From Clostridia bacterium (GTDB lineage: Bacteria; Bacillota; Clostridia; Oscillospirales; CAG-272), in assembly GCA_017466685.1 (NCBI GenBank), contig JAFTTS010000140.1, positions 715 through 64,714 of the forward strand: DNA of 64,000 nucleotides, read 5' to 3'. The position numbers and the translations under genes were made by a program. The notes below the pieces were generated by a model. It saw nothing but the letters and a program-made list of their open reading frames with translations. It was not told where the DNA came from and did no database searches. Position 1 is the first letter of the stretch; each line of letters opens with the position of its first letter. Positions 9,580 through 47,812 of this stretch are shown here, in pieces.

Positions 9580-9618
9580 TAAAAAGCGCACGGAAAATTA
9601 AAGCTCCGTGCGTTTTCG
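9577..9618. terminator. bidirectional terminator between convergent genes
   Basis: 8-bp stem CGCACGGA/TCCGTGCG (9587-9594 / 9605-9612), with an A-run upstream and TTTT downstream. Confidence 0.65.
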
Positions 9619-9628
9619 TATATGTTTG

Positions 9629-10714
9629 TCAGATAATGTCAACAGACTTGCCTGTTCTTGCCGATTCGTAAAGTCCCTCGAGGATCTTCATGATAACAAC
9701 GCCGTCCTCTGCGGGGGAGATACACTTGGTGCCGTTAAGACAGCAGTCAACAAAGTGATCGATCTCTGCCCGGAAGCCTTCCTTAGCTTCGTTGTAGTTG
9801 TCCACATCCTTGATCTCGGAATTGACCATGAAGCCGTTAACGTCGGTGTAATACATCATTGTGTCGAGGTTCAGACCGCCCTTGGTTCCGTAAAGAATGC
9901 GACCGTTGCCGCCATCCTGAGTGCTTCTGCCGTCGTGGAGGCTATACGAGCACTCAAGCAGAGTCGATGCACCGTTTTCGTAACGGATGATACCGACTGC
10001 ACTCGATTCAACGTCACAAACATCCTTCTTGGGATCGGCACCCTCGGGAGCCCAGCCAACGTGAGTCTTGAGGTTAGCACGGTCTTCGTGAAGCTCGTTT
10101 GCCGCAACACAGTATACCGAAACAGGCTTCGGATTGCCCATGAGATAACGGGTGAGGTCAAGCGGATGTACACCGATATCGATGATAGGTCCGCCGCCCG
10201 AACGCGACTTATCGGAGAACCAACCGCCGGGGTTACCGTGACGGCGTACATATGTAGCCTTAGTGTAGTAAATATTGCCGAGATAGCCGTTGTCGATGAA
10301 GTCCTTTGCGATACGCGACTGATTTGAGAAGCGTGTTACAAAGCCAAGCATGAGGAGCTTACCGTTCTTGTCGGCGGTGTCCTTCATCTCCTGCGCTTCT
10401 GCCGCGGTCATTGCCATGGGCTTTTCGCAGAGTACATTGAGACCTGCGTTGAGAGCGGCGATGGTGCACTCAGCGTGAGAGCAGTTCCATACGCAAACGT
10501 CAGCTGCGTCAAGCTCCACACTTGCGAGCATTTCGTCGACGCTTGTGAAACGTGCTTCAATATTGTGCTTATCGGCAAACTTGTTAAGCTTTTCCGCATC
10601 GATATCGCAGACAGCGGCGATTTCAACGTTGGGATTTGCCTCGTAACGGGTGATGTGTGTTTCGCCGATATTGCCTGTACCGATGAGTGCAACTCTTAAT
10701 TTTTTCATGTTCAT
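9629..10714 (-). CDS. Gfo/Idh/MocA family oxidoreductase
   Basis: N-terminal Rossmann motif LRVALIGTGNIGETH and the EKPMA motif, at the typical ~360 aa length. Confidence 0.9.
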   Translation of the reverse strand: MNMKKLRVALIGTGNIGETHITRYEANPNVEIAAVCDIDAEKLNKFADKHNIEARFTSVDEMLASVELDAADVCVWNCSHAECTIAALNAGLNVLCEKPMAMTAAEAQEMKDTADKNGKLLMLGFVTRFSNQSRIAKDFIDNGYLGNIYYTKATYVRRHGNPGGWFSDKSRSGGGPIIDIGVHPLDLTRYLMGNPKPVSVYCVAANELHEDRANLKTHVGWAPEGADPKKDVCDVESSAVGIIRYENGASTLLECSYSLHDGRSTQDGGNGRILYGTKGGLNLDTMMYYTDVNGFMVNSEIKDVDNYNEAKEGFRAEIDHFVDCCLNGTKCISPAEDGVVIMKILEGLYESARTGKSVDII

Positions 10715-10734
10715 TACCTCTCGTTTTTGTTTAC

Positions 10735-11586
10735 TTATTTAATAATACCACGCAGGAAATCAGCCGCTAACGTGATATCAGCTTCGGGAGTCGGGCCGAC
10801 CTCACGCTCGATTGTGAGGTAACCGCGGTAACCGATGTCCTCAAGTGCCGCAAGGTAAGCCGGGAAGTCAACGTCGCCTGTTCCGAGCGGTACTTCCTCG
10901 AAGAATTTCGTGTTTCTGATTTCTTCGGGAACGGGATGAACGACATGGTAAATATATTCGGGATTGCCGTCAGCAAGCTTTACACCGTCCTTTGCATGGG
11001 TGTGTACGATGTAATCCTTGAGGGTGTAAACAGCCTTGACGGGATCATCACCTGTAACCATTGCAAGATTTGCCGGGTCAAGGTTTACAGCAACGCCCTT
11101 TGAACCGAGGCTGTCGAGGAAGGTTTTGAGAGTTGCGGCGGTTTCAGGACCTGTTTCGATTGCGAAATGTGCATCGAGCGAGTCTGCATAATCTGCGAGC
11201 TCCTTGCAAGCCTCCTGCATGATTTTGTAACGGTCGTGGTTCGGATCTTCGGGAACGACGCCGATATGCGTTGTAACAATATTGCAGTCGAGCTCCTTTG
11301 CGAGGTCAAGGATACGCTTGGATATTTCGATGCTCTCGGGGTTAAGCGCGGGATTGCCGAAGCCGCGTCCGTGGTCACCGCAGAGAGCGGAGAAAACAAG
11401 ACCGTTATCCTTTACGTATTTAAGCAGCTCACGTGCCTTTGCACCGGAGAGATTTTCGGGTGCGTTTTCACCCTTGGTCGCGTACATCTGGATGCCGTTA
11501 AGTCCAAGCTCTGCCGCCTTTTTTACAGCATCATAGGTGGGCAGACGGAACGATTCGAGAACTACGCCGATCGGAAACTTATACAT
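10735..11586 (-). CDS. sugar phosphate isomerase/epimerase (xylose-isomerase-like TIM barrel)
   Basis: 283 aa with the family-typical segments AIETGPE and HTHAKDG...YLTIERE. It shares an operon with the Gfo/Idh/MocA gene. Confidence 0.8.
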
Positions 11587-11739
11587 AGTGATTCTCCTTA
11601 TTTAAAAATTTTACCTTTGAATTAACTTTTTTCTATAAGCCTCTTGCATTTTCCTTGTGCTTATTATATAATAATTGCAGGAGTATTTCAATAAATAATA
11701 TTGCTTACATTTAACACAATATTGCTTTTGGGGGATATT

Positions 11740-12597
11740 ATGAGTAGTTGCAATCCATGTATACCGGACTGCTTTGACGATGAACCTGCAGCATCGGGAG
11801 AGAAGCGGAATTATGAATCTCACATCCTGTCCGATCCGTCAAAACCTTACCTTTTTCATGCAGGAAATCGTTACACAATGCCGCACTGGCACGAAAATAT
11901 AGAAATTCTTTATTTTTACGGTGACGGCGGAATGGTTTGTGACCGTACCTCATATGAGGTTCATGCGCACGATATTGCGGTTTTTAATTCAAACACACTT
12001 CATTCTGTTCCGCTCTCGAGCCCGGTGGCACACGACTGTCTTATCATTGACAGCGGATTTCTTGCAAAATGTGACATACCTATTGCCGAAACCAAGTTTG
12101 ACTGTATCATTCGTGATGAGGAAGCCAAGCGGCGTTATCTTGAAGCTGCGAAAACGATTGTACAGCGTGAAGAGGGGGACAGTCCGTTCGGTGCGGCGAT
12201 GGTGAAATCGGCGATACTTTCATTTATGGTATATCTATGCTGTAATTTCTCGCAAAAGGACACCTGTGAGCAGGCACACGGAGATTCGGTGAAGCGTGCG
12301 CTCGGTTACATCAAGTCGCATTTTGACGAGCCGTTAACGATTGACCGTATTGCAGACAGCGTGAACGTCAGCAAGTATTATTTTTGTCGTGAGTTTCACC
12401 GAGAAACGGGATTTACGGTTGTGAGATACATAAACAATCTGCGTTGTCGTGAGGCGGAAAAGCTGCTCCGTGACGGGAAATATACGGTCGGAGAGGTTGC
12501 GAGGATGTGCGGTTTTGAGAATCTGTCATATTTCACGAGGACATACAAGGCCATCATCGGTCACACGCCAACCGAGTCGCGTAATGCACAGGAATAG
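11740..12597 (+). CDS. AraC family transcriptional regulator (cupin sensor plus HTH)
   Basis: C-terminal AraC HTH (SKYYFCREFHRETGFTVVRYINNLRCREAEKLL...NLSYFTRTYKAIIGHTP). It is divergent from the sugar operon. ATG 11740 is preceded by GGGGGA. Confidence 0.85.
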   Translation: MSSCNPCIPDCFDDEPAASGEKRNYESHILSDPSKPYLFHAGNRYTMPHWHENIEILYFYGDGGMVCDRTSYEVHAHDIAVFNSNTLHSVPLSSPVAHDCLIIDSGFLAKCDIPIAETKFDCIIRDEEAKRRYLEAAKTIVQREEGDSPFGAAMVKSAILSFMVYLCCNFSQKDTCEQAHGDSVKRALGYIKSHFDEPLTIDRIADSVNVSKYYFCREFHRETGFTVVRYINNLRCREAEKLLRDGKYTVGEVARMCGFENLSYFTRTYKAIIGHTPTESRNAQE

Positions 12598-12626
12598 TCA
12601 AAATTCGACAAAATACCGCGATGTTA

Positions 12627-12655
12627 TTGACAAACGCAAAAATTTTTGTTATAAT
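12627..12655 (+). promoter_or_regulatory. sigma-A-type promoter of mscL
   Basis: TTGACA (12627-12632), a 17-nt spacer, then TATAAT (12650-12655). Confidence 0.65.
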
Positions 12656-12693
12656 CGAAGCTGTAATAAATTAATATATTTTGGAGGCTAATC

Positions 12694-13239
12694 ATGGCAA
12701 AGATCAAGGATAAGCTCGGAAAGGTTACATTCTTTTCCGATTTCAAGGCGTTCATCACAAAGGGCAACGTGCTCGATATGGCAGTCGGTGTTGTTATCGG
12801 CGGTGCATTTGGCAAGATCGTAACCGGACTTGTTAACAATATCATCAATCCCGTTATAGCTTGTCTTACAGGCAGCGGCTCGATGGATGGATGGAAGATT
12901 ACACTTCGTGAAGCAGTTCCTGCTGACGAGGTGGCAGGCACAGCAGAGGTTGCCGAAGTTGCTATTACATACGGCACATGGCTTCAGACAATTATTGATT
13001 TTCTGATAGTTGCACTTTGCGTATTTGTTGCGGTACGCTGCATCAAGTCGCTTGAGAGAAAGCTCAACGCTAAGGCAATTGAAAAGGCTGAGGCTGAGGC
13101 GGCTGAGAAGAAGGCTGCAGAGGATGCCGCTGCTGCAGAGGCTAAGGCTGCAGAGGATGCAAAGCTTGCCGCTGAAAAAGCTGCACTCGAGGAGTTCTAC
13201 GCTAACATCCGTGAGATCAGAGATTCGCTTAAGAAGTAA
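12694..13239 (+). CDS. mscL: large-conductance mechanosensitive channel MscL with an extended Ala/Glu/Lys-rich C-terminus
   Basis: FKAFITKGNVLDMAVGVVIGGAFGKIV...NNIINP is the MscL TM1 signature. At 181 aa it is longer than usual because of an AEAAEKKAAEDAAAAEAKAAEDAKLAAEKAALEE segment. Confidence 0.9.
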   Translation: MAKIKDKLGKVTFFSDFKAFITKGNVLDMAVGVVIGGAFGKIVTGLVNNIINPVIACLTGSGSMDGWKITLREAVPADEVAGTAEVAEVAITYGTWLQTIIDFLIVALCVFVAVRCIKSLERKLNAKAIEKAEAEAAEKKAAEDAAAAEAKAAEDAKLAAEKAALEEFYANIREIRDSLKK

Positions 13240-13245
13240 ACGATC

Positions 13246-13280
13246 GGGACTGTCTTTTTGAGAGGCAGTCCCATTTATTT
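13246..13280 (+). terminator. intrinsic terminator of mscL
   Basis: Stem GGGACTGTC/GGCAGTCCC (one G.U) followed by ATTTATTT. Confidence 0.6.
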
Positions 13281-13295
13281 ATTCCGCCAATTCTA

Positions 13296-13845
13296 ACTTC
13301 AGCCGCGTCAGCGGCGTTTCCGCGCTAAAGAAACAATGAAGCCACTGAGCCGCCGACGCAGCTGGCGGTGGACGAACGGTTACAGTGACAAAGCGAATTG
13401 TGAGCGTTAGCGAACTGAGCGCAATTCGAGCGCAGGCAAAGGAAAGAGGGAGAGCTCGAGAGGGAAGAAAAACATCGCGCAGCGTTGGTTGTCGTCCCTC
13501 TCGAATGATACGAAGCTCGAAGCGGCATACTTTGAAGAAAGCTTTTCTCCGATATGAGCATAAAAGTTACTTTTATCCCGGATAACGAAAGAATATACGA
13601 ATTTTTTTTAGATTTCGAATCATTTTTCGAGTAATTCGAGGGACATAGGAACCAGCTGCCGCAGTTTCCTATTCCCCTCGAGCTCCCCTTTGCACCTCCT
13701 TGGCTGGGCTCGATTTGCGCTCAACTCCGCCTTACGGCTCCGGATTCGCTTTGTCACTGTAACCGTTCGTCCACCGCCAGCTGCGTCGGCGGCTCAGTGG
13801 CTTCATTGTTTCTTTAGTGCAGAGACGCCGCTGCGCGGCTGAAGT
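13296..13845. repeat. locus A of an interspersed structured repeat family: ~550-bp palindrome (two units head to head)
   Basis: 13325-13398 is the exact reverse complement of 13744-13817 (74 bp). Imperfect complementarity continues outward to 13296/13845 and inward to a centre near 13570-13620. Sequence is shared with the loci at 27.4, 40.3 and 47.3 kb. Confidence 0.9.
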
Positions 13846-13852
13846 TACTGAT

Positions 13853-13900
13853 GCAAAACAAGGGAGCTGCCCGTTTTAGTGGACAGCTCCGATTTTTTTA
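13853..13900. terminator. terminator of the SLH-protein gene (bidirectional shape)
   Basis: Stem GGAGCTG/CAGCTCC (13863-13869 / 13884-13890), with T-rich tracts on both strands. It lies 2 nt beyond the stop codon. Confidence 0.6.
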
Positions 13901-13901
13901 T

Positions 13902-16685
13902 TTATTCAACTGTGAATTCAACGAAGAAGCCAACGCCGTTTACCTCAAAGAGGAGTACATAATCGCCTGCTTCGAGAGCGGTGTCGGGAGTGATCTCGAA
14001 CGAGAAGTTTACGCCGGGAAGCTTAGCTTCGGTGAATTCCGAGATGTCAAGTTCTTCGTATTCCTCTGCTTCTGCGTCGAAGCTGTAGAGTGCGGACATT
14101 TCGAAGCTGTCAACATCCTTGAGGGTGTCAACTGCGGATACGGTGATCTTTCCCTCTGCATAGCTTGCATCAAAGCTTGCCGCACCAAGAAGAATTATCG
14201 AGGTTACCTTTCCGTCCTTGACGAGGAACTCGACATTGCCCATGAATGCATCTGCAAGTGTGATTATGGTAACGGTCTTGTCGGAATTGAGCTCGGTCAC
14301 CTTGATGCCGTCTGCAATACCGAAGGTTTCGCCGCCGATGGTTACTGTTGTCTTGGTGTAACCCGATACAACGCCGCTTGCTATGGATGCTTCCGCTGCG
14401 GAGATAAGGCTCTCTGCATCGATGAGGTAGTTCTTGCCTGCGACGAGCTCATCACTCTTTGAGTACATTTCCTTGATTTCGCCCGTTGCGAGGTCAAGTA
14501 CGGTGTAAGTGCTTAAAACTGTGCCGTCAACAAGCTCATGACCGGTGCTCTCGAGTACCTTGACACTGCTCTGGGTTGTAACGGTGTCGCCGAGAGAGCC
14601 GTCGGAAACGTAGAGGTAACGCAGGGTTTCAACCGAACCGATCTCATTGGTGAAAATAGCGGTTACGTATGCGCCGTCTCTGACTGTGATGCCCGACTTA
14701 TATGTGCCGGTGATGACAGAGTGAGTTGTGCCGTTCTTTACGATGATAAGTGTGTCATCGTTCATTACGAATCTTACAGAGGATTCGTCATTTCCTGTGG
14801 AGGTCTTGGAATCAGCACTGCCTGCCGAGATCGTGTGGTACGAGCCGGAGGGTGCAATGGTTGTCGAATCGGCGCTGTCGATGATGAACGCAATTTCGTC
14901 GTTCTTACTGTTTGACTGTACAAATTTATCTTCGCCGGATACGATGGTGCCGCCGCTTGTTGTTGCGGGAATAAGTGTGAATGTGCCGTCAGCGCTTGTT
15001 ACATAGCGATATACCTCGCCTGCGTTTACAACACGGTTGGTTACGAAGATCGTTTCTGCCACACCGTCAATAAGTGCTTCTACTGCGTAACCGAGCTTGC
15101 CTTCCACGAATACGGGAGTCGTGCCGCTCTGTGCAACAAGATACTTCGAGGGTGCGCCGATTACAGTGGTTGCGGTGTCAACTGCGAGAATGATATCGCC
15201 GAATACGACAACGCGTACTGCCGCACCGACTGTGAGCTGTTCACGTATGGATTCTGCGCTCACTCCGAGCTTTTCACTTCCGAGAGTATAGCTCTTGCCG
15301 TCGATGGTTGCGGTGGTCTTGGTCAGACGTGTGATCTTGCCGGGCTCGGTTATCGGAAGGACTGCCGAAAGCTCGAGTGTCTTACCGCTCTCGTTGAAAT
15401 AGTAGAGAACATAGTCGCCGTTTGCTGCCTTGCTCTCGTCGATGATGGAGAGGTCGGTTTCCTTCATGCCGCCGGCGAGATTTACCTTACCGTTCTTTAT
15501 TTCAAGCTTGCCGAATGCGAAGGGCTTGATTATAAGGCGGTCTGCGGTTGTGCTGTTCTTATCATCGAAGATAAGCTCTGCATCATATGCGCCGAGAAGA
15601 TCGGAGAGTGCTGCATTTGTTGTGATCTGTGTAAGAGATGCGTCCTTGTCGTAAGCGTAAACAAGAAGCTCGTTTGCGTTGGTTGCAAGTGCATCGGAGA
15701 GGGTTTCGACAACCTGGTATTTAACGCCGCCGATCTCGATATGTGCATTGTTCTTGCCGGGGGTTATAACCTCTGCGGCTTCACTCTTACCAAGCTCTGT
15801 GCAGCCGAGTACACTTACGAGCTTTGTCTTTTCGTCGCGCTTGTAAACCAGCTTGTAATTCTTGCCGAGATGCTCGTCTGCCTCACCCTCGAGTGCAAGC
15901 TCTGCGTATTTAACGGTGAGGAAGCCGTCCTCGGTGTGAACGGTTACATAGCCGTCCTTGGTTACGGTGTCAACGCCCTCAAGTGCGAAATGGTTGGTTG
16001 CAACGATGACGCTTTCATCAATTGTATAACCGAACACACGCTCGATGATCGTTGTGGATTCATAGAAGGTCATACCGTTGGATGCGGTTCTCGGAATGAG
16101 GTACTCCGCCGTGAGTGCATTGTAGAGGAGTGCGGAAACCTCGGAACGGGTGAGCTCCTTGGTGTAAGCGAGCTCCTCAATGCCGTCATCGAGACCGAGC
16201 TTGACTGCCGCATCGATGTAAGTCCAGGGGTAACCGCCGTTCATCTGGATCGAGCTGTGGCCGAGTGCACGAACGAGCATGGTCATCGCGTCCTGGAGCA
16301 TGATTCCGCCCTGAGGTGTGAAGGTTGAGTCGCTTGTACCGATGATGTAACCCGAAGCGTTTGCCCATGAGATAGCACCGCTGTAGGTGTCATTTGAAAG
16401 GTCGGTGAAGGGGGAAGTGTTTATTGTTCCCGCGGTGTCTTTGCCGATCATGAGTCTAAAGAGAAGCAGTGCCATCTGCTCACGGGTGACTTTTTCGTCG
16501 GGCGAAAATTCGGTTTCGCTTGTACCCTTTATAACTCCGATATCGGAAAGAATTTCGATTTGCTCTGCGTATCTGTCGGTTGATGCAACGTCATCGTACG
16601 ACTTCGCAAAGGCTCCGGTCGCCATTGTGGCAGTGAGCATTACAGTTGCCAGCGAGCCGGATATGAATCTTTTCAGATTTTTCAT
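13902..16685 (-). CDS. SLH-domain cell-surface (S-layer-associated) protein
   Basis: Signal peptide ending ...ATGAFA, then three SLH-like repeats (YDDVASTDRYAEQIEILSDIGVIKG..., FTDLSNDTYSGAISWANASGYIIG..., YIDAAVKLGLDDG...) and a ~700-aa T/S/V/G-rich beta-type region. Confidence 0.85.
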   Translation of the reverse strand: MKNLKRFISGSLATVMLTATMATGAFAKSYDDVASTDRYAEQIEILSDIGVIKGTSETEFSPDEKVTREQMALLLFRLMIGKDTAGTINTSPFTDLSNDTYSGAISWANASGYIIGTSDSTFTPQGGIMLQDAMTMLVRALGHSSIQMNGGYPWTYIDAAVKLGLDDGIEELAYTKELTRSEVSALLYNALTAEYLIPRTASNGMTFYESTTIIERVFGYTIDESVIVATNHFALEGVDTVTKDGYVTVHTEDGFLTVKYAELALEGEADEHLGKNYKLVYKRDEKTKLVSVLGCTELGKSEAAEVITPGKNNAHIEIGGVKYQVVETLSDALATNANELLVYAYDKDASLTQITTNAALSDLLGAYDAELIFDDKNSTTADRLIIKPFAFGKLEIKNGKVNLAGGMKETDLSIIDESKAANGDYVLYYFNESGKTLELSAVLPITEPGKITRLTKTTATIDGKSYTLGSEKLGVSAESIREQLTVGAAVRVVVFGDIILAVDTATTVIGAPSKYLVAQSGTTPVFVEGKLGYAVEALIDGVAETIFVTNRVVNAGEVYRYVTSADGTFTLIPATTSGGTIVSGEDKFVQSNSKNDEIAFIIDSADSTTIAPSGSYHTISAGSADSKTSTGNDESSVRFVMNDDTLIIVKNGTTHSVITGTYKSGITVRDGAYVTAIFTNEIGSVETLRYLYVSDGSLGDTVTTQSSVKVLESTGHELVDGTVLSTYTVLDLATGEIKEMYSKSDELVAGKNYLIDAESLISAAEASIASGVVSGYTKTTVTIGGETFGIADGIKVTELNSDKTVTIITLADAFMGNVEFLVKDGKVTSIILLGAASFDASYAEGKITVSAVDTLKDVDSFEMSALYSFDAEAEEYEELDISEFTEAKLPGVNFSFEITPDTALEAGDYVLLFEVNGVGFFVEFTVE

Positions 16686-27440: not shown

Positions 27441-27745
27441 GTGGTGGGCGTTAGCTGTAGAGAACCCTCTCCGACTCGCTGCGCATAGATGCTTGCATCT
27501 GTTACACCTTTCTCCCGGAGTGAGAGGCTAAAAGTAACACTTTGTGCAGTAAAACGAAAAAAGGTGAATCTGATGCCGGCGAAGCTGGCAGGACAAACGG
27601 TTACAGATGACAAAGCGAATTGTGAGCCTGCGAACTGAGCGCGAATCGAGCGCGGCAAAGGAAAGAGGGAGAGCGCGAGAGGGAAGAAAAACATCGCGCA
27701 GCGTTGGTTGTCGTCCCTCTCGTAAGATACGATAATCGAAGTGAA
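27441..27745. repeat. locus B of the interspersed structured repeat family (recN-tyrS spacer)
   Basis: 27575-27745 aligns almost base for base with 13345-13515 of locus A (for example ACGGTTACAG.TGACAAAGCGAATTGTGAGC and GGCAAAGGAAAGAGGGAGAGC.CGAGAGGGAAGAAAAACATCGCGCAGCGTTGGTTGTCGTCCCTCTCG). 27465-27540 is the reverse complement of the GCCTCGCCC..CGGGAGAGG..GAGTCGGAGAGGG module seen at 40.4 and 47.4/47.7 kb. Confidence 0.85.
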
Positions 27746-27838
27746 TACAATGAAATTTCTCAAAACTTCGCACACAAATCGCAAACTAACATAAACAACA
27801 AAAAACAACATAAACAACAAAAAGGAAGGTACAAAATA

Positions 27839-40299: not shown

Positions 40300-40344
40300 T
40301 GGATATAAATGGGGACTTTACTTAAAGTTTAACGGAAAGGTTTT

Positions 40345-40930
40345 TCTGCGATGTTTGGGGTTATTGCAAAACATCGTTTTGCTGCTCTGACTAACTTAGC
40401 CTCGCCCTTTGGGAGAGGTGTCGAGCATAGCGAGACGGAGAGGGTAATTCCGAGGCATACTGCTTTGAGCTTCGCGTAAATTCGAGAGGGATGGACACCA
40501 GTTGCACAGTTGTTCCACTACACATCGCTTTCAGCGAGTGTTCTCGAGCTCTCCCACCCTTCCTTGCCGACGCCCGATTTGCGCTCAGTTCGCTTCGCTC
40601 ACAATTCGCTTTGACACCTATACCCCTCGAGCCGCCACCTTACGAGGGCGGCTTCACTCCCTTGTTTATTTTACTGCAAAAAAGTTAGTCTGTGCAGGTA
40701 AGTTTCGTTTACCGTTGAACATCGTTTTACTGCTCCAATCTAACTTTTCTCGCCGACGCAGTTGGCGAAAACGAACGATTACCGTTATACGAGCGAATTG
40801 TGAGCCGTAGGCGAACTGAGCGTGCCGAGAAGACCGCCCAAGGAAGGTAAGGGGTGCCCGAGGGGACGGGAAACTGTGGCGAGAGTTGGTTCCTGTCCCC
40901 TCGGAAAGCACTGCACAAGCGATAGTACGG
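40345..40930. repeat. locus C of the interspersed structured repeat family (one unit plus an inverted partial unit)
   Basis: 40385-40680 is collinear with 47360-47640 of locus D. 40745-40905 is in the opposite orientation and collinear with 13345-13503 of locus A. Confidence 0.85.
40348..40381 (+). terminator. terminator-like hairpin downstream of tspO (also the first module of repeat locus C)
   Basis: 8-bp stem CGATGTTT/AAACATCG (40349-56 / 40369-76) followed by TTTT. Confidence 0.5.
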
Positions 40931-41004
40931 CAAACACCGATTACGCTCTTTCAAAAACAGGTAGCAACAAATTAATATAGCTTTCAAAAAACAACGATTT
41001 TCTA

Positions 41005-41033
41005 TTGACAAATTTAGAATAAAAGAGTATAAT
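41005..41033 (+). promoter_or_regulatory. sigma-A-type promoter of the DUF4430-like lipoprotein gene
   Basis: TTGACA (41005-41010), a 17-nt spacer, then TATAAT (41028-41033). Confidence 0.65.
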
Positions 41034-42237: not shown

Positions 42238-43608
42238 TTAAGTGTATTTATATTCAATCTGACTGTACAATTGCCAGAGGACGTTTATCATATAGACAAG
42301 CCAGATGCCCGTCAGAATAAACGGGATAAGCCAGAATGCGGCGTTTATATCGGCTCGCATGAAAATGTAGACGGCATTTGAAAAGAGCGCGATGACAAAG
42401 AGCACGGCACCTTTGATGATGCTGTTCTTCACTGAACGCAGATGATTTTTGTATATAGCAATCAAACGCTCGTCCTTTATATCGGGGTCGGGAGCGAGAT
42501 GTGCTTTGGCGAGGACGAGTATTTCTCGCATTATCATAAGCATTGTCAGTCCCATTATGGCATATTCAATGACAGACAAGGTCACCGAGAGGTTATACAG
42601 CGTGACTACCTCGGGATCGGCAACTCCGAGCGTTATCGCGCGCAGGTCGTATTTTACAGAGAATGTAAACGACACGCCGAATGTAACTGCCGAAACGAGT
42701 GTGAATATAACCGAAGCGACGATGGATACACCCGAAACAGGCGATACCCTTTTTAACTTCAGCATGGCGGCAAATATGAACAGAGCACCGATGAAGGTCG
42801 GTATTACGTTCACGCTGTCAAACCACATATTCAGGAAAAAGACGAAGCCTGCAACCAAAAAGGCAATCACGGTATGAAGACTGCGGCGTATTCCGATTCC
42901 GACGTTATCGGTTATCTCGAGGTCGTAATCGTGAAGTATGCGTTCAAGAAACGGCGTGTCCTTTGATATGCGCTGTATATACGGAAGTGTATTGACAAGC
43001 CAGAGAATGCCGATGAGAAGTGACAGTATCACTCCTGCAAGCACGAAAAGGTTTTTATACTGCGAAAGATCAAACTGCGGAGTTGAGGTTATATAGCCTG
43101 AATACTCATAGTCTGAAAGGGACGTAAATTCGGGGATCAGGCAGAGTACGGATTTTGCAATAAAGAAAATGTTTGTTAAAAGACGCAGATCCTTGAGGCC
43201 GTTAAATACCGCCTTGCCGTCAAAGCGTGTTCCGAAGTATTCAAGTCCGTCAAAGATACGTCCTGCGGCGGGAATTGCGTATATCAGCTCGATCAGTATG
43301 AACGCAAACGTCAGCAGAAGAGTGAGCGTGTCATCCCTCATGATCGGAATGAGAATGATCGCCGGGAGCTTTATGAGCATATACCAGCGAAGCTTACCGA
43401 GTCCCTGCACGGCGTCTGCAATGTTGGGACAAAGATCTGCCCATTTTTCAAGTCCCTTTAATAAAAACATATAGCCGAAAAAGTCGGGCAGGATGTCAAC
43501 AATGTTGATGCACGGATTGAATATAAAAATGACAGCGGCGATGAAATATCCGTATCCGAGACGTTTTTTCGGCGGCACGGTGGTGTGTTCTCTTTTGCTT
43601 GTCACCAT
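42238..43608 (-). CDS. polytopic membrane protein of unknown function (internal duplication)
   Basis: 456 aa with at least 10 hydrophobic helices. A motif block F.F.N....[DN].[IV].P.F.G occurs at about residues 28-50 and again at about 255-278. It shares this module with the upstream 227-aa ORF. Confidence 0.6.
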   Translation of the reverse strand: MVTSKREHTTVPPKKRLGYGYFIAAVIFIFNPCINIVDILPDFFGYMFLLKGLEKWADLCPNIADAVQGLGKLRWYMLIKLPAIILIPIMRDDTLTLLLTFAFILIELIYAIPAAGRIFDGLEYFGTRFDGKAVFNGLKDLRLLTNIFFIAKSVLCLIPEFTSLSDYEYSGYITSTPQFDLSQYKNLFVLAGVILSLLIGILWLVNTLPYIQRISKDTPFLERILHDYDLEITDNVGIGIRRSLHTVIAFLVAGFVFFLNMWFDSVNVIPTFIGALFIFAAMLKLKRVSPVSGVSIVASVIFTLVSAVTFGVSFTFSVKYDLRAITLGVADPEVVTLYNLSVTLSVIEYAIMGLTMLMIMREILVLAKAHLAPDPDIKDERLIAIYKNHLRSVKNSIIKGAVLFVIALFSNAVYIFMRADINAAFWLIPFILTGIWLVYMINVLWQLYSQIEYKYT

Positions 43609-43629
43609 ATCAGATATCCTTCCTTTTGC

Positions 43630-44313
43630 TTATTTTTTATTTCGTTTTGTCCATGCGATGATCTTATCGAAAACGTCCTCACGGTATGGCATATCCTCGT
43701 CTCCCTCAAGGCATATTTTCGCATAGCAGGAGAAGATAAGCAGGAGATTCACAAGAATACATACATATTCAAGCAGTCTTGAAAACAGTCCGACATAGGC
43801 TACGATCATACGAAATTCGTCGTTTACTGTAGCTGTCGACGATATCACTATTTCGGCTATACCCGAAAGCAGCATTGCCGCGCCGAAAACACCGGTTACT
43901 GTTATTCTTCGTGTTGCCGCAGAGGCAAGCTTCGGAAGCTCGACCTCGTTTGAAAGGCGGTGTATTCCGAGAAACAGAGTTATCGAGTATATACAGAGTG
44001 TGAGCTTTGCAAGGAGCACTGCCGAGTATATACAGATCGTGCCCATTGAAGCCGCCGAAGCAGAATCGGCAGAGGTGGTGTCCGCCGGTATAAAATTAAG
44101 CACGAGCATTGCGGCAGAGAAAAGAGACAAGAGTACAAGCGCATATTTTGCCGCCTTGAACGACTTGTTTTCGGGACAATACTGAATTAACCGCTTCATG
44201 GCGGCAAGCATCAGAACACAGCCGATGATCGAAAGATTCGGCAGCATACCGATCGTGTCGAGCGGATAAAACAGCAGGAAAAAGTATCCGATAAAGAGAA
44301 AACCGAAGCCCAT
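43630..44313 (-). CDS. polytopic membrane protein of unknown function (paralogous module)
   Basis: 227 aa. The N-terminus MGFGFLFIGYFFLLFYPLDTIGMLPNLSIIG...CPEN parallels LGYGYFIAAVIFIFNPCINIVDILPDFFG...CPN of the next ORF. Confidence 0.6.
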   Translation of the reverse strand: MGFGFLFIGYFFLLFYPLDTIGMLPNLSIIGCVLMLAAMKRLIQYCPENKSFKAAKYALVLLSLFSAAMLVLNFIPADTTSADSASAASMGTICIYSAVLLAKLTLCIYSITLFLGIHRLSNEVELPKLASAATRRITVTGVFGAAMLLSGIAEIVISSTATVNDEFRMIVAYVGLFSRLLEYVCILVNLLLIFSCYAKICLEGDEDMPYREDVFDKIIAWTKRNKK

Positions 44314-47170: not shown

Positions 47171-47319
47171 AGTTATATATCTCCGATTCAAAATGAATTA
47201 TTTTACTTTTCATGCATTTTTCAGCGAAAACTTTACGTAAAATGCATACACGTAATTAGTATACTACATTTTTTCGAAAATTGCTATAATATATTGTAAA
47301 TTTTCAGTGTTTTTTTGAT

Positions 47320-47760
47320 TTGTTTTACTGCGGAATATTGTTCTGCTGCTTTGGCTAACATAAAGCCTCGCCCTCCGGGAGAGGTGGCGAGCGAAGCGAG
47401 ACGGAGAGGGCAAAGTACGCCGCTTCGAATTTCGCGTAATACATGAGGGGAGCAGGAACCAGCTGCGCAGTTTCCTATTCCCCTCATACTCCCCTTTGCA
47501 CCTCCTTGCCTTACGCCCGGGTTGCGCTCAGTCGCTAACGCTCCAATTCGCTTTGACACCTGTACACATCGAGCCGCCACCTTACGAGGGCGGCTTCACT
47601 CCCCTGTTTCTTTCACTGCAAAAAAGTTAGTCTGTGCAGACAAGTTTCGTTTTACAGCGGAACATTGTTTGGCTGCTTTGACTAACTTATAGCCTCGCCC
47701 GCCGGGAGAGGTGGCGAGCGAAGCGAGTCGGAGAGGGCAAAGTACGATTCTTCAAACTTC
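47320..47760. repeat. locus D of the interspersed structured repeat family (about 1.3 tandem units)
   Basis: The unit starting TTTTACTGCGGAATATTGTT...GCCTCGCCCTCCGGGAGAGGTGGCGAGCGAAGCGAGACGGAGAGGGCAAAGTACG at about 47323 restarts at about 47649 (TTTTACAGCGGAACATTGTT...GCCTCGCCCGCCGGGAGAGGTGGCGAGCGAAGCGAGTCGGAGAGGGCAAAGTACG). Confidence 0.9.
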
Positions 47761-47774
47761 ACATGAAATCTCTC

Positions 47775-47812
47775 TAAACAAAAAGGAGCTGCTTTCGTAG
47801 AACAACTCCTGA
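47775..47812 (-). terminator. intrinsic terminator of the maturase-like gene
   Basis: On the minus strand, stem AGGAGTTG/CAGCTCCT (one mismatch) followed by TTTTTGTTT. Confidence 0.6.

Follow-up and report, generated by a model that had tools for sequence, protein, structure and literature searches.

The segment between mscL and the gene for an SLH-domain protein, in the 64-kb stretch of clostridial DNA analysed here (the window), is an imperfect palindrome of 554 bp made of two repeat units joined tail to tail. The likeliest interpretation is a selfish element that encodes no protein, as opposed to a gene or a terminator. Our preferred reading, at about even confidence, is that this doublet belongs to a clade-specific, non-coding and non-autonomous family resembling REPINs and BIMEs, which spreads via a single-stranded hairpin and in which the doublet itself propagates. 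Judging from the genomes searched, the family appears to be restricted to a few related uncultured gut Clostridia, with dispersed, intergenic copies.

The palindromic doublet and its setting

The coordinates of all features are collected in Table 1. An earlier note on this DNA had described a ~550-bp palindrome able to fold as one long hairpin, with 13325-13398 and 13744-13817 as exact inverted copies and TA abutting both outer ends. All of this holds. The two arms are exact reverse complements, 74 nt being the maximal exact length; TA is present at 13294-95 and 13846-47; and the doublet, as single-stranded DNA, is predicted to form one hairpin of -221 kcal/mol, versus -90 +/- 4.6 for shuffled sequences (z = -28.5; 0 of 100 shuffles as good). 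Repeat search gives wider arms of 97 nt that are 94% complementary (13309-13405 and 13737-13833), and the outermost 14 nt pair perfectly (TAACTTCAGCCGCG at 13294-13307, its complement at 13834-13847). Taken together, the exact arm, the 94%-complementary sequence around it and the perfect 14-nt end amount to a terminal inverted repeat of ~105 nt, which is conserved in both arms. When 13571-13847 is reverse-complemented and aligned to 13294-13570, the two halves show 75% identity over 291 aligned columns.

The same note had held that both flanking genes possess terminators of their own and that the element is not explained as a simple terminator. Both statements were borne out: canonical intrinsic terminators, each with a T tail, lie separately outside the element, and none was detected inside it. 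Across the family, the elements contain no strong internal promoter or terminator, and neither signal was found at the unit boundaries.

Three independent metagenome assemblies of different samples (L003, L004 and L005) cross the whole palindrome without gaps at 99.7-99.8% identity, and the palindrome centre is present at single-copy depth in Logan unitigs of three runs. The palindrome is not an artefact of a single assembly. Its exact arm is also the point at which four other contigs break (four of seven contigs stop there), which we attribute to the repeats.

Table 1. Positions of the doublet, its parts, its neighbours and the other copies in the window
Feature	Position	Strand	Remarks
MscL gene	12694-13239	+	
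mscL intrinsic terminator	13246-13283	+	hairpin 13246-13272 and T tail; ends 10 nt before the element
Whole palindromic doublet	13294-13847		554 bp; two units tail to tail; outer ends TAACTTCAGCCGCG and complement CGCGGCTGAAGTTA
Left unit (arm subtype A)	13294-13570	+	head to tail on +; nhmmer 3.5e-73; covariance model 192 bits
Left exact arm	13325-13398	.	74 nt
Hairpin P1, left unit (GCCGCC..GGCGGT)	13349-13369	+	98% of cells paired; CG<->UA double changes
Hairpin P2	13393-13422	+	invariant AGCGAAT...GAGC...TGAGCG core, the family signature
Purine tract GGCAAAGGAAAGAGGGAGAGC	13435-13455	+	mirrors the 5' arm of P3 about CTC
Long hairpin P3, left unit	13456-13504	+	double changes across copies in 20 of 23 pairs
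Centre motif AAAAGT-T-ACTTTT	13562-13574	.	tail-to-tail junction
Right unit (arm subtype B)	13571-13847	-	head to tail on -; nhmmer 2.6e-61; covariance model 117 bits
Right exact arm	13744-13817	.	74 nt; reverse complement of 13325-13398
SLH-gene intrinsic terminator	13853-13890	-	hairpin 13890-13863 and T tail; 5 nt from the element
SLH-domain protein gene	13902-16685	-	
Module X (inverted, ~27455-27535) and unit 27533-27790	27455-27790	+	between recN and tyrS
Composite of 677 nt	40303-40979	.	X 40345-40447 (+), unit 40419-40697 (-), linker 40688-40740 (53 nt), unit 40732-40957 (+)
Tandem (X + unit) array, period 327 nt	47316-47775	.	X 47316-47433, unit 47391-47639 (-), X 47644-47760, then truncated unit tail; upstream of the secA promoter

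Structure and strand of the repeat unit

The unit is ~275 nt long, non-coding and heavily folded, with four conserved hairpins that carry many compensatory changes. P1, P2 and P3 are formed by every copy; a small hairpin, P1b, is weaker, with 70% of its cells paired. The hairpins extend over the whole unit, beyond subterminal positions, and invariant single-stranded motifs (AGCGAAT, TGAGCG, AAGGA and TGGT) lie between them. RNAalifold recovered the structure only partly from the raw MAFFT alignment, because of register shifts in that alignment, and a covariance-model realignment was used instead. In this model alignment, which leans towards the structure used in building it, 86.6% of cells pair versus 37-47% in slid controls. 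Double changes are seen at 27 of the 41 pairs of the unit structure, and the covariation score is 0.205 versus 0.04-0.06 for slid controls (reached by 0 of 500 shuffles), with the reservation that repeat copies share descent and such counts are therefore not independent.

One strand of the unit stands out. G.T outnumbers A.C in the stems by 57 to 14 in the model alignment and in P3 by 41 to 16 under strand-symmetric scoring, wobble counts that are likewise not independent among copies of common descent; this excess points to one strand as the folded strand. Folding of the head-to-tail strand is favoured by ~10 kcal/mol over that of its complement in 22 of the 23 units. Templated correction of quasi-palindromes, as opposed to selection, could be part of the cause of hairpin maintenance. 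A bolder proposal, which we consider rather unlikely, is that the ~200-nt core of the unit is a new strand-specific folded ssDNA or RNA and the family a large REPIN-like class of replicators in Clostridia, with an enzyme that serves it and no derivation from a known IS.

In this bolder proposal, a purine mirror repeat (e.g. AGGGAGAG-CTC-GAGAGGGA) that co-varies with the pyrimidine arm of P3 could fold into a triple helix of the purine-motif type or switch between two states. A coding mini-gene was also considered for the unit and ruled out, since the indels that separate copies do not come in lengths divisible by three and no frame is free of interruptions.

Copies within the window and beyond

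The earlier note had taken each half of the palindrome for one copy of a unit that recurs at 27.4, 40.3 and 47.3 kb, and recurrence was found at all three places. The window holds six units, those outside the doublet lying at 27533-27790 (+), 40419-40697 (-), 40732-40957 (+) and 47391-47639 (-). Units and other modules join in alternating orientation via a CTAACTT junction motif, and module X may replace a unit in these mosaics; the head-to-head linker of 53 nt is bounded by AAGTTAG...CTAACTT, and the tail-to-tail centre reads AAAAGTWACTTTT. The copies are not uniform, comprising doublets, single units, head-to-head pairs, tandem X + unit arrays and truncated units.

Every copy is intergenic. 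The elements are placed between terminators or upstream of promoters, with housekeeping genes as neighbours; often the terminators are convergent, and other copies lie between co-directional genes, upstream of promoters. Synteny also breaks at the repeats, both downstream of mscL and upstream of secA.

A covariance model of the unit finds 29 units in the window and 14 loci of two related MAGs, JAZNFB01 and CAYSFT01, and none in nine loci of close relatives. Searching 185,579 species genomes with the exact core pattern returned 14 loci, in two MAGs only, and the same pattern had no match in JGI metagenome contigs or in IMG/VR. A degenerate pattern yielded 17 metagenome loci, all of which nhmmer identified as chance matches. 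No match to the repeat was obtained by blastn against plasmids and phages. The repeats give rise to spurious ORFs, and copies were also sought through these: a word-indexed protein search produced no match, and an exhaustive HMMER search with the X + unit translation produced two. In three metagenome runs, words of the repeat occur at a depth of 100-300 versus ~9 for the flanks.

Five tail-to-tail doublets are now at hand (those of the window and of loci L019, L015, L020 and L008), at non-orthologous sites in three species; the flanks of the latter four show no orthology to the window or to each other. The terminus TAACTTCAGCCGC is common to L019, L020 and L008, and the outer head of L015 differs. 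The centre AAAAGT[T/A]ACTTTT is found in four of the five, with a degenerate GAGTTACTTTT in L020. The L019 doublet has the arm architecture of the window doublet, with 81% identity in matching left/right orientation and 77% when inverted. Doublets at non-orthologous sites of other species thus keep their ends and both arm subtypes as an A/B pair. A dispersed family of mobile or selected repeats, as the earlier note had supposed, is upheld by these copies beyond the window, by its restriction to one clade and by the defined doublet termini at non-orthologous sites.

An empty site, which had been proposed as a check, was found for another member of the family. The TspO-DUF4430 spacer measures 794 nt in the window versus 135, 179 and 155 nt in three relatives (SecA identity 87-90%); the spacer flanks align with those of the relatives, and the additional 677 nt in the window are the repeat composite. 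Since the orthologous spacer is without the repeat, the 40.3-kb composite is an insertion relative to these three relatives. The empty site is flanked by ATATA, the relatives being too diverged for a duplication to be called. For the doublet, no empty site was found at the mscL locus, where MscL relatives (73-86% identity) share upstream synteny and have downstream genes that all differ. Within the species, all contigs spanning the 13-kb and 40-kb elements carry them, so that neither element showed filled/empty polymorphism, and no joint skipping the doublet occurs in three runs. In sister species, the equivalent genes and promoters are kept and the element is absent; JAFQVU01 is among the sister species that lack the repeat.

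Mobilisation and competing explanations

The earlier note saw no transposase, RAYT or integrase gene in the window, and a Pfam scan of 50 window ORFs, together with precomputed Pfam assignments for the rest, agrees: no transposase, integrase or Y1/RAYT domain was detected. No mobilising gene is present in the 8 kb past the right window edge, and the 26 ORFs flanking elements in the 14 other loci belong to housekeeping families only by Pfam. Y1_Tnp had no match among the 78 ORFs scanned, nor were TnpA and TnpB found among them. A cognate IS with matching termini and an IS630-like gene were both absent from the window, the 8 kb beyond and the neighbourhood of the elements at the 14 loci. Integron attC sites were considered as well and rejected: CTAAC resembles RYYYAAC/GTTRRRY in some copies only, the element is ~4 times the size of the largest attC, and there is no integrase.

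The closest parallel is to REPINs, which consist of two inverted repeats that form a hairpin in ssDNA or RNA and are mobilised in trans; they are extragenic, multi-copy and non-autonomous, and it is the doublet and not the single repeat that replicates, more complex arrangements occurring alongside (PMC3337134, PMC3116915). As in the REPIN/RAYT systems of Pseudomonas and Enterobacteria, an inverted doublet of a palindromic repeat forms one long hairpin here and would be the propagating unit. However, REPINs are ~90-120 bp long and built from REPs of 16-35 nt, whereas this doublet has 554 bp and units of ~275 nt with four hairpins each; there is no GTAG-like signal, the boundary motif being CTAACTT, and no RAYT in the ORFs scanned; the host belongs to the Gram-positive Clostridia; and the arms are two subtypes that are only 75% alike. 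Resemblance to the BIMEs of E. coli lies in the intergenic mosaics of palindromic units that alternate in orientation, in the few conserved head-to-head and tail-to-tail linkers and in the frequent position after operons, although the unit is ~tenfold larger here and the CTAACTT junction and linkers are unrelated in sequence. Binding of gyrase, IHF or Pol I and effects on mRNA stability also belong to the BIME type; the likeness drawn here is one of sequence architecture. The BOX elements of Streptococcus pneumoniae are another modular intergenic repeat of a Gram-positive organism, with combinable boxes, stable stem-loops and no known transposase. Their modules of 45-59 nt follow a direct A-Bn-C order and do not alternate, unlike the Clostridia repeat, and no sequence relationship exists between the two. 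Finally, derivatives of IS200/IS605 have strand-specific secondary structures and a short conserved boundary sequence (PMC6006769). The present family, with its wobble bias to one strand and its CTAACTT boundary motif, resembles these palindrome-associated HUH elements in part, its hairpins covering the whole unit and not subterminal positions only; nevertheless, the HUH elements have asymmetric ends without terminal inverted repeats and a replication-strand bias, whereas the ends here are symmetric. The window lies within one replichore, with near-monotonic cumulative GC skew, and its units are oriented three on + and three on -; this absence of replication-strand bias counts against an HUH-type reading.

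Under the REPIN-like reading, the outer ~105 nt of the unit would serve as long terminal inverted repeats of the doublet, and spread, whether ongoing or until recently, would involve an intermediate that is single-stranded and folded as a hairpin. Recognition of this intermediate in trans would fall to an enzyme whose gene lies at some other place in the genome, much as RAYT/IS200-IS605-type HUH transposases are believed to serve REPINs. Copies may survive only where insertion is neutral, for example in the handful of bases that separates back-to-back terminators, and arrays and mosaics could arise by recombination or by repeated insertion at the common CTAACTT junction motif. Neither mscL nor the SLH gene would depend on the element at the 13-kb locus. 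Against this reading stand the missing mobilising enzyme (in the window, 8 kb beyond and beside the elements at 14 loci), the presence of the elements in all spanning contigs of the species, the lack of a doublet with an empty site, on which the exact termini and any target duplication depend, and units that are ~10 times the length of a REP and have no known GTAG-type signal.

The earlier note had likened the TA at both outer ends to that of an IS630/Tc1-mariner-type MITE, in which a DDE transposase binding the terminal inverted repeats would cut and paste the doublet and duplicate a TA target. RUP and Correia-type MITEs are non-coding and intergenic, have terminal inverted repeats and TA ends, and form long stem-loops as transcripts or ssDNA; TA is a frequent terminus among bacterial MITEs, and IS630-Spn1 is the presumed partner of RUP (PMC2229807). 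The doublet matches the TA MITEs (Correia/NEMIS, RUP and ERIC) in being non-coding, dispersed between genes and able to fold, and in having TA at either end beside terminal inverted repeats; its size fits too. Its terminal inverted repeats are long and near-perfect (14-nt perfect ends; 97 nt at 94%; 74 nt exact), and TA flanks all three complete doublets with a TAACTT terminus, preceded by C and mostly followed by G (L019, AAAC-TA...TA-GTTT; L020, AAAAC-TA...TA-GACAAG; window, TTC-TA...TA-CTG). IS630 prefers CTAG as its target, which the context of the doublet ends fits. Since TA is itself palindromic, a target duplication and an extension of the repeat look the same without an empty site. However, the TA sits inside a conserved (C)TAACTT motif, and the base outside the TA is C at seven of eight doublet ends. 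The same motif marks junctions between modules within the mosaics as well as the middle of the palindrome, places for which no duplication is implied; the ends lend no specific support to a TA duplication and do not refute it. In addition, TA MITEs are uniform elements of ~100-200 bp, whereas here we see modular BIME-like mosaics, tandem and inverted arrays and truncated units; covarying internal hairpins and a strand-asymmetric G.T bias are not predicted for a double-stranded cut-and-paste substrate; and neither a cognate IS nor an IS630-like gene was found in the ORFs of the window or the other element loci. We regard this explanation as improbable.

Just as doubtful is the alternative in which the unit would encode or form a structured RNA of ~200 nt, acting as a small RNA or in cis within a UTR, for example as an anti-Shine-Dalgarno/Shine-Dalgarno-like regulator or an mRNA stabiliser; the doublet would then be two convergent copies of it. 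The four covarying hairpins, the invariant single-stranded motifs between them and the G.U-type wobble bias to one strand are consistent with an RNA, and where a doublet separates convergent genes, each of its units has the sense orientation with respect to the gene reading into that unit. Moreover, the spacer of the unit upstream of tyrS has no terminator and only weak promoter-like sites, which suggests that this unit is probably transcribed with recN and tyrS. Yet strong intrinsic terminators precede both units at the 13-kb locus, the unit boundaries have no promoter or terminator signals, and at 40 and 47 kb the units follow no consistent direction with respect to the genes beside them. 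The region was found in no RNA-seq run. Rfam 15 at the gathering threshold identifies only a tRNA-Trp in the whole window, and no T-box upstream of tyrS; at E <= 10, the three element regions give sub-threshold chance matches only and no family. The family is also wholly absent from close relatives (87-90% SecA identity), which argues against a housekeeping role.

Less probable still is a BIME-type DNA structure that serves the host as a cruciform, a gyrase or nucleoid-protein site or a bidirectional transcription barrier and is kept by selection instead of mobility. Intergenic positions, often between convergent terminators, alternating orientation with fixed junction motifs and extreme hairpin potential would all suit such a site. 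Nevertheless, other copies lie between co-directional genes, upstream of promoters; both genes at the 13-kb locus are already terminated; sister species keep the genes and promoters without the element; and a strand-asymmetric wobble bias is unexpected for a double-stranded site. As for a chimeric fold-back made by the assembler at a repeat, the assemblies examined are all short-read and four contigs terminate within the exact arm, but the identical, gap-free 554 bp in three independent assemblies, the unique centre crossed at single-copy depth by unitigs of three runs and the matching doublet architecture in MAGs of two other species make it extremely improbable.

If the REPIN-like reading is true, a small clade of uncultured chicken-gut Clostridia would carry abundant protein-less replicators, at about one unit per 10-12 kb over 72 kb, and REPIN/BIME logic would operate at five to ten times its usual size, and in a phylum from which such systems are little known. 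In these genomes, the repeats fragment short-read assemblies. With its strong covariation and strand bias, the unit is a clean starting point in the search for its maintaining enzyme or an RNA function, and the clade-restricted distribution offers a natural presence/absence contrast for identifying the partner gene.

The palindrome between mscL and the SLH-domain gene

Positions 13325-13398 are the exact reverse complement of 13744-13817, and the exact match does not extend beyond these 74 nt. Outward, complementarity takes the form of a 97-nt arm pair (94%), and the doublet ends in 14 nt that pair perfectly, TAACTTCAGCCGCG at one end and its complement, CGCGGCTGAAGTTA, at the other. Inward, complementarity continues at lower identity, the two 277-nt halves being 75% alike. 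As single-stranded DNA, the doublet folds into one hairpin of -221 kcal/mol, compared with -90 +/- 4.6 for shuffled sequences (z = -28.5). Each flanking gene has a canonical terminator of its own just outside the doublet. These results bear out an earlier note, which had described the exact inverted copies, their imperfect extension in both directions, the single long hairpin and the separate terminators.

The identical arrangement is found in three independent metagenome assemblies, with 99.7-99.8% identity and no gaps. Four further contigs end within the exact arm, as is expected given that repeats are where contigs break. In three sequencing runs, unitigs cross the unique centre at a depth of ~7-14 (flanks ~9), while the repeated parts reach depths of up to 100-300. 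Assemblies and unitigs, rather than long reads, thus confirm that the doublet is not a one-off assembly artefact.

Two observations concern the neighbourhood. An imperfect 33-nt direct repeat within mscL (13066-13176) codes for the C-terminal tail of MscL, which is rich in Ala, Glu and Lys; the repeat reflects low-complexity coding sequence and has no relation to the palindrome. In L002 (ERZ28653984), an assembly of the same species, the gene calls from the cNMP-binding regulator up to mscL differ: ORFs of 130 and 223 aa stand where the window (9580-12690) has a GFO/IDH oxidoreductase and an AraC regulator, which could reflect strain variation or poor assembly.

Units, module X and their arrangement

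Coordinates of the palindrome, its flanking genes and the repeat modules in the window
Feature	Position	Strand	Remark
mscL	12694-13239	+	Pfam MscL
Palindromic doublet	13294-13847		between the 3' ends of mscL and the SLH-domain gene
SLH-domain protein gene	13902-16685	-	
Module X	about 27455-27535		inverted
Unit	27533-27790	+	
Module X	40345-40447		
Unit	40419-40697	-	
Unit	40732-40957	+	
Module X	47316-47433		
Unit	47391-47639	-	
Module X	47644-47760		

Each half of the doublet is one copy of a ~275-nt unit read from head (outer end) to tail (centre), the left half on the + strand and the right half on the - strand. The recurrence of the unit, also proposed in the earlier note, amounts to four more copies in the window, at 27, 40 (two) and 47 kb, and a second module of ~100 nt, X, is attached to units. 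Inverted pairs are the commonest arrangement of units and are of two kinds: the tail-to-tail doublet, with the conserved centre AAAAGT[T/A]ACTTTT, and the head-to-head pair, joined by a 53-nt quasi-palindromic linker after which X may stand in a unit's place. At 47 kb, X and unit form a tandem array with a period of 327 nt. Every module starts with (C)TAACTT, next to another module or unique DNA alike. The architecture is that of a BIME-type mosaic repeat on a much larger scale.

Module X has a consensus of roughly GCCTCGCCC-NNN-GGGAGAGGTGGCGAGCGAAGCGAGACGGAGAGGG, in which a pyrimidine arm is combined with a purine mirror repeat and a small hairpin. It presumably resembles hairpin repeats that are widespread in Clostridia genomes and give spurious '...GRW..EA.TEG...' peptides; an exhaustive protein search returned one protein with two X-like copies (P0242). 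In the doublet at L020 (4505-5170, in the MAG CAYSFT01), the full left unit is preceded by a further, incomplete head, a tandem duplicate of the ~140 nt with which a unit starts. Local duplication or recombination is thus another way in which units grow.

No Rfam family matches the repeat, and neither a strong promoter or terminator nor a conserved reading frame is present inside it. Searches of 50 window ORFs, of 8 kb beyond the window and of 26 ORFs beside elements elsewhere detected no domain of a transposase, an integrase or a Y1 HUH enzyme, in line with the earlier note, which had seen no transposase, RAYT or integrase gene in the window; the neighbours of the elements, in the window and at the other loci scanned, are all housekeeping genes.

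The 400-nt recN-tyrS spacer (27441-27838) is filled by an inverted X and one unit. Given that it lacks any terminator-like site and that its promoter-like sites are weak, the repeat there probably belongs to one recN-tyrS transcript. Upstream of tyrS (start 27839), no Rfam T-box leader is detected, even at E <= 10.

Probable folding of one strand

Every unit has the local hairpins P1, P2, a long P3 and a small, weaker P1b; P2 encloses the invariant AGCGAAT...GAGC...TGAGCG core, and a further hairpin, P4, is often present beyond P3. A covariance model built from seven units recovered 29. In its alignment, 86.6% of cells hold standard pairs (37-47% with partners slid by 1-3 columns), and 27 of the 41 pairs have changed on both sides, although such compensation can be mimicked by templated quasi-palindrome correction. 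The base of P3, for instance, shows four different pairs at one position (T-A, G-C, A-T and C-G) and two at its neighbour (C-G and T-A). The covariation score is 0.205; sliding the partners gives 0.04-0.06, shuffling them gives 0.108, and none of 500 shuffles reaches the observed value, with the caveat that the copies share ancestry and the model alignment leans towards its own structure.

Mismatches are asymmetric between the strands, with G.T against A.C at 57:14 in the model alignment and at 41:16 for P3 in a strand-symmetric arm alignment. The head-to-tail strand folds better than its complement by ~10 kcal/mol in 22 of 23 units, a bias to which the compositional advantage of the purine-rich strand may contribute. 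The pattern nevertheless points to one strand acting as a single strand, either a transposition intermediate or an RNA.

Just 5' of P3 (13435-13466, and the equivalent in every unit; alignment A6, columns ~135-181) lies a purine tract that mirrors the P3 5' arm about a pyrimidine-rich centre of 3 nt; one instance is AGGGAGAG-CTC-GAGAGGGA. Subfamilies show coordinated changes in this tract and in both arms of P3, the 5' arm and the pyrimidine 3' arm (GAGAGGGA, GAGGGGGA, GAGGAGGG, GAGGGGAA, GAGAGGGGG). Such a sequence would suit a purine-motif triple helix or alternative pairing, though its low complexity leaves mirror and direct similarity not fully separable.

Distribution, evidence of mobility and proposed nature of the element

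The invariant core, AGCGAATTGTGAGC and ACTGAGCG separated by 2-10 bases, was sought in one genome per species for 185,579 species. Matches occur in two MAGs only, Candidatus Flemingiibacterium sp. JAZNFB01 (11 loci; Clostridia incertae sedis in NCBI taxonomy) and the 'uncultured Lachnospiraceae' CAYSFT01 (3 loci), many of them at contig ends; the earlier note had suggested a search for such further copies. JGI metagenome contigs and IMG/VR gave none, a looser pattern gave chance matches only, the plasmid and phage collections searched hold no copy, and no unit lies in the 4-23 kb taken from each relative with 73-86% MscL or 87-90% SecA identity. Hence, the family is restricted to a narrow clade. 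In the window's organism it is frequent, with 6 units in about 72 kb.

The tail-to-tail doublet is present in the two other species at different, non-orthologous sites (L019, L015, L020 and L008). Three of these doublets share the TAACTTCAGCCGC termini, and most have the centre motif and pair an arm of one subtype with an arm of another. Flanking sequences at the 14 loci show no homology to one another or to the window; L019, for example, has a D-Ala-D-Ala carboxypeptidase gene on one side and a convergent gene for a membrane protein on the other. The L019 and window doublets are 81% identical in the same left/right orientation and 77% when inverted. Within each of these two doublets, the outer ~105 nt of one arm are nearly identical to those of the other and the inner parts differ, as is typical of long terminal inverted repeats that flank an interior which has diverged.

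An empty site, another thing the earlier note had proposed looking for, was found for the 40-kb member. Three relatives keep the PBP-TspO-DUF4430-DUF4830 order and the same strong promoter, with a spacer of 135, 179 or 155 nt, against 794 nt in the window, where the extra 677 nt (40303-40979) are an X-unit-linker-unit composite. ATATA flanks this insert at both ends, the relatives being too diverged to call a target duplication. Upstream of secA, homology with relatives stops exactly at the start of module X, past which a different gene is found, and this places the element at a synteny breakpoint. Downstream of mscL (13240-13900), a different gene follows in every MscL relative, a second such breakpoint at an element site (loci compared at the two: L022-L026 and L048-L051). 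Taken together, the repeated doublet sites, the empty site and the synteny breakpoint are evidence that the element is, or was, mobile; the lack of any filled/empty polymorphism seen within the window's own species counts against recent activity.

It should also be noted that the promoter upstream of the DUF4430 gene (41005-41033), kept in three related species and immediately outside the insertion, is a perfect sigma-70-type consensus (TTGACA, 17 nt, TATAAT; 12/12). At the secA breakpoint (47192-47330), the conserved secA promoter is preceded in relatives by a gene for a PLP enzyme of Cys/Met metabolism, and in the window by X-unit-X and an unrelated gene of 251 aa. Downstream of secA, two genes (42238-44313, - strand; 227 and 456 aa) have no Pfam match, and their position is kept in four related species (L048-L051).

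We judge it about an even chance that the repeat is a non-autonomous element that would spread through a folded single strand, be mobilised by a trans-acting enzyme encoded elsewhere and survive in neutral intergenic niches. The closest working analogy is the REPIN, here with BIME-like mosaic clustering added, and we do not claim membership. In a REPIN, a palindromic repeat and its inverted copy fold into a hairpin as ssDNA or RNA; they propagate together as a doublet, with a single-copy HUH transposase acting on them in trans (PMC3337134, PMC3116915). The present unit, however, is tenfold larger than a REP, its boundary motif differs and no RAYT is seen.

The earlier note raised the idea of a TA-duplicating IS630/mariner-type MITE, calling the flanking TA weak evidence, and we regard this reading as unlikely. 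TA does flank the doublet, as it does two other complete doublets with the same termini, and in these three C precedes it and G usually follows, a context that agrees with the target preference of IS630 (CTAG/TA). Many bacterial MITEs end in TA, and for RUP the enzyme used is believed to be that of IS630-Spn1 (PMC2229807). However, the TA lies within CTAACTT, a motif found as well at the head of internal modules and in the palindrome centre; the family structure is not uniform; and strand-biased, covarying hairpins are unexpected for a double-stranded cut-and-paste substrate. The proposal is possible but unsupported, since neither an empty doublet site nor, in the window and the other loci scanned, a cognate IS was found. 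That the single strand is instead a structured RNA is similarly improbable, a DNA structure serving the host is doubtful to a greater degree, and an assembly artefact would be very surprising.

Palindromic repeats scattered through intergenic DNA are a familiar type of element, and the finding opens no new mechanism as yet. As far as the searched libraries show, this family is undescribed, and it differs from known ones in unit size, richness of internal structure and host phylum. Its covariation, its strand bias and the purine mirror repeat beside P3 are the points of specialist interest.
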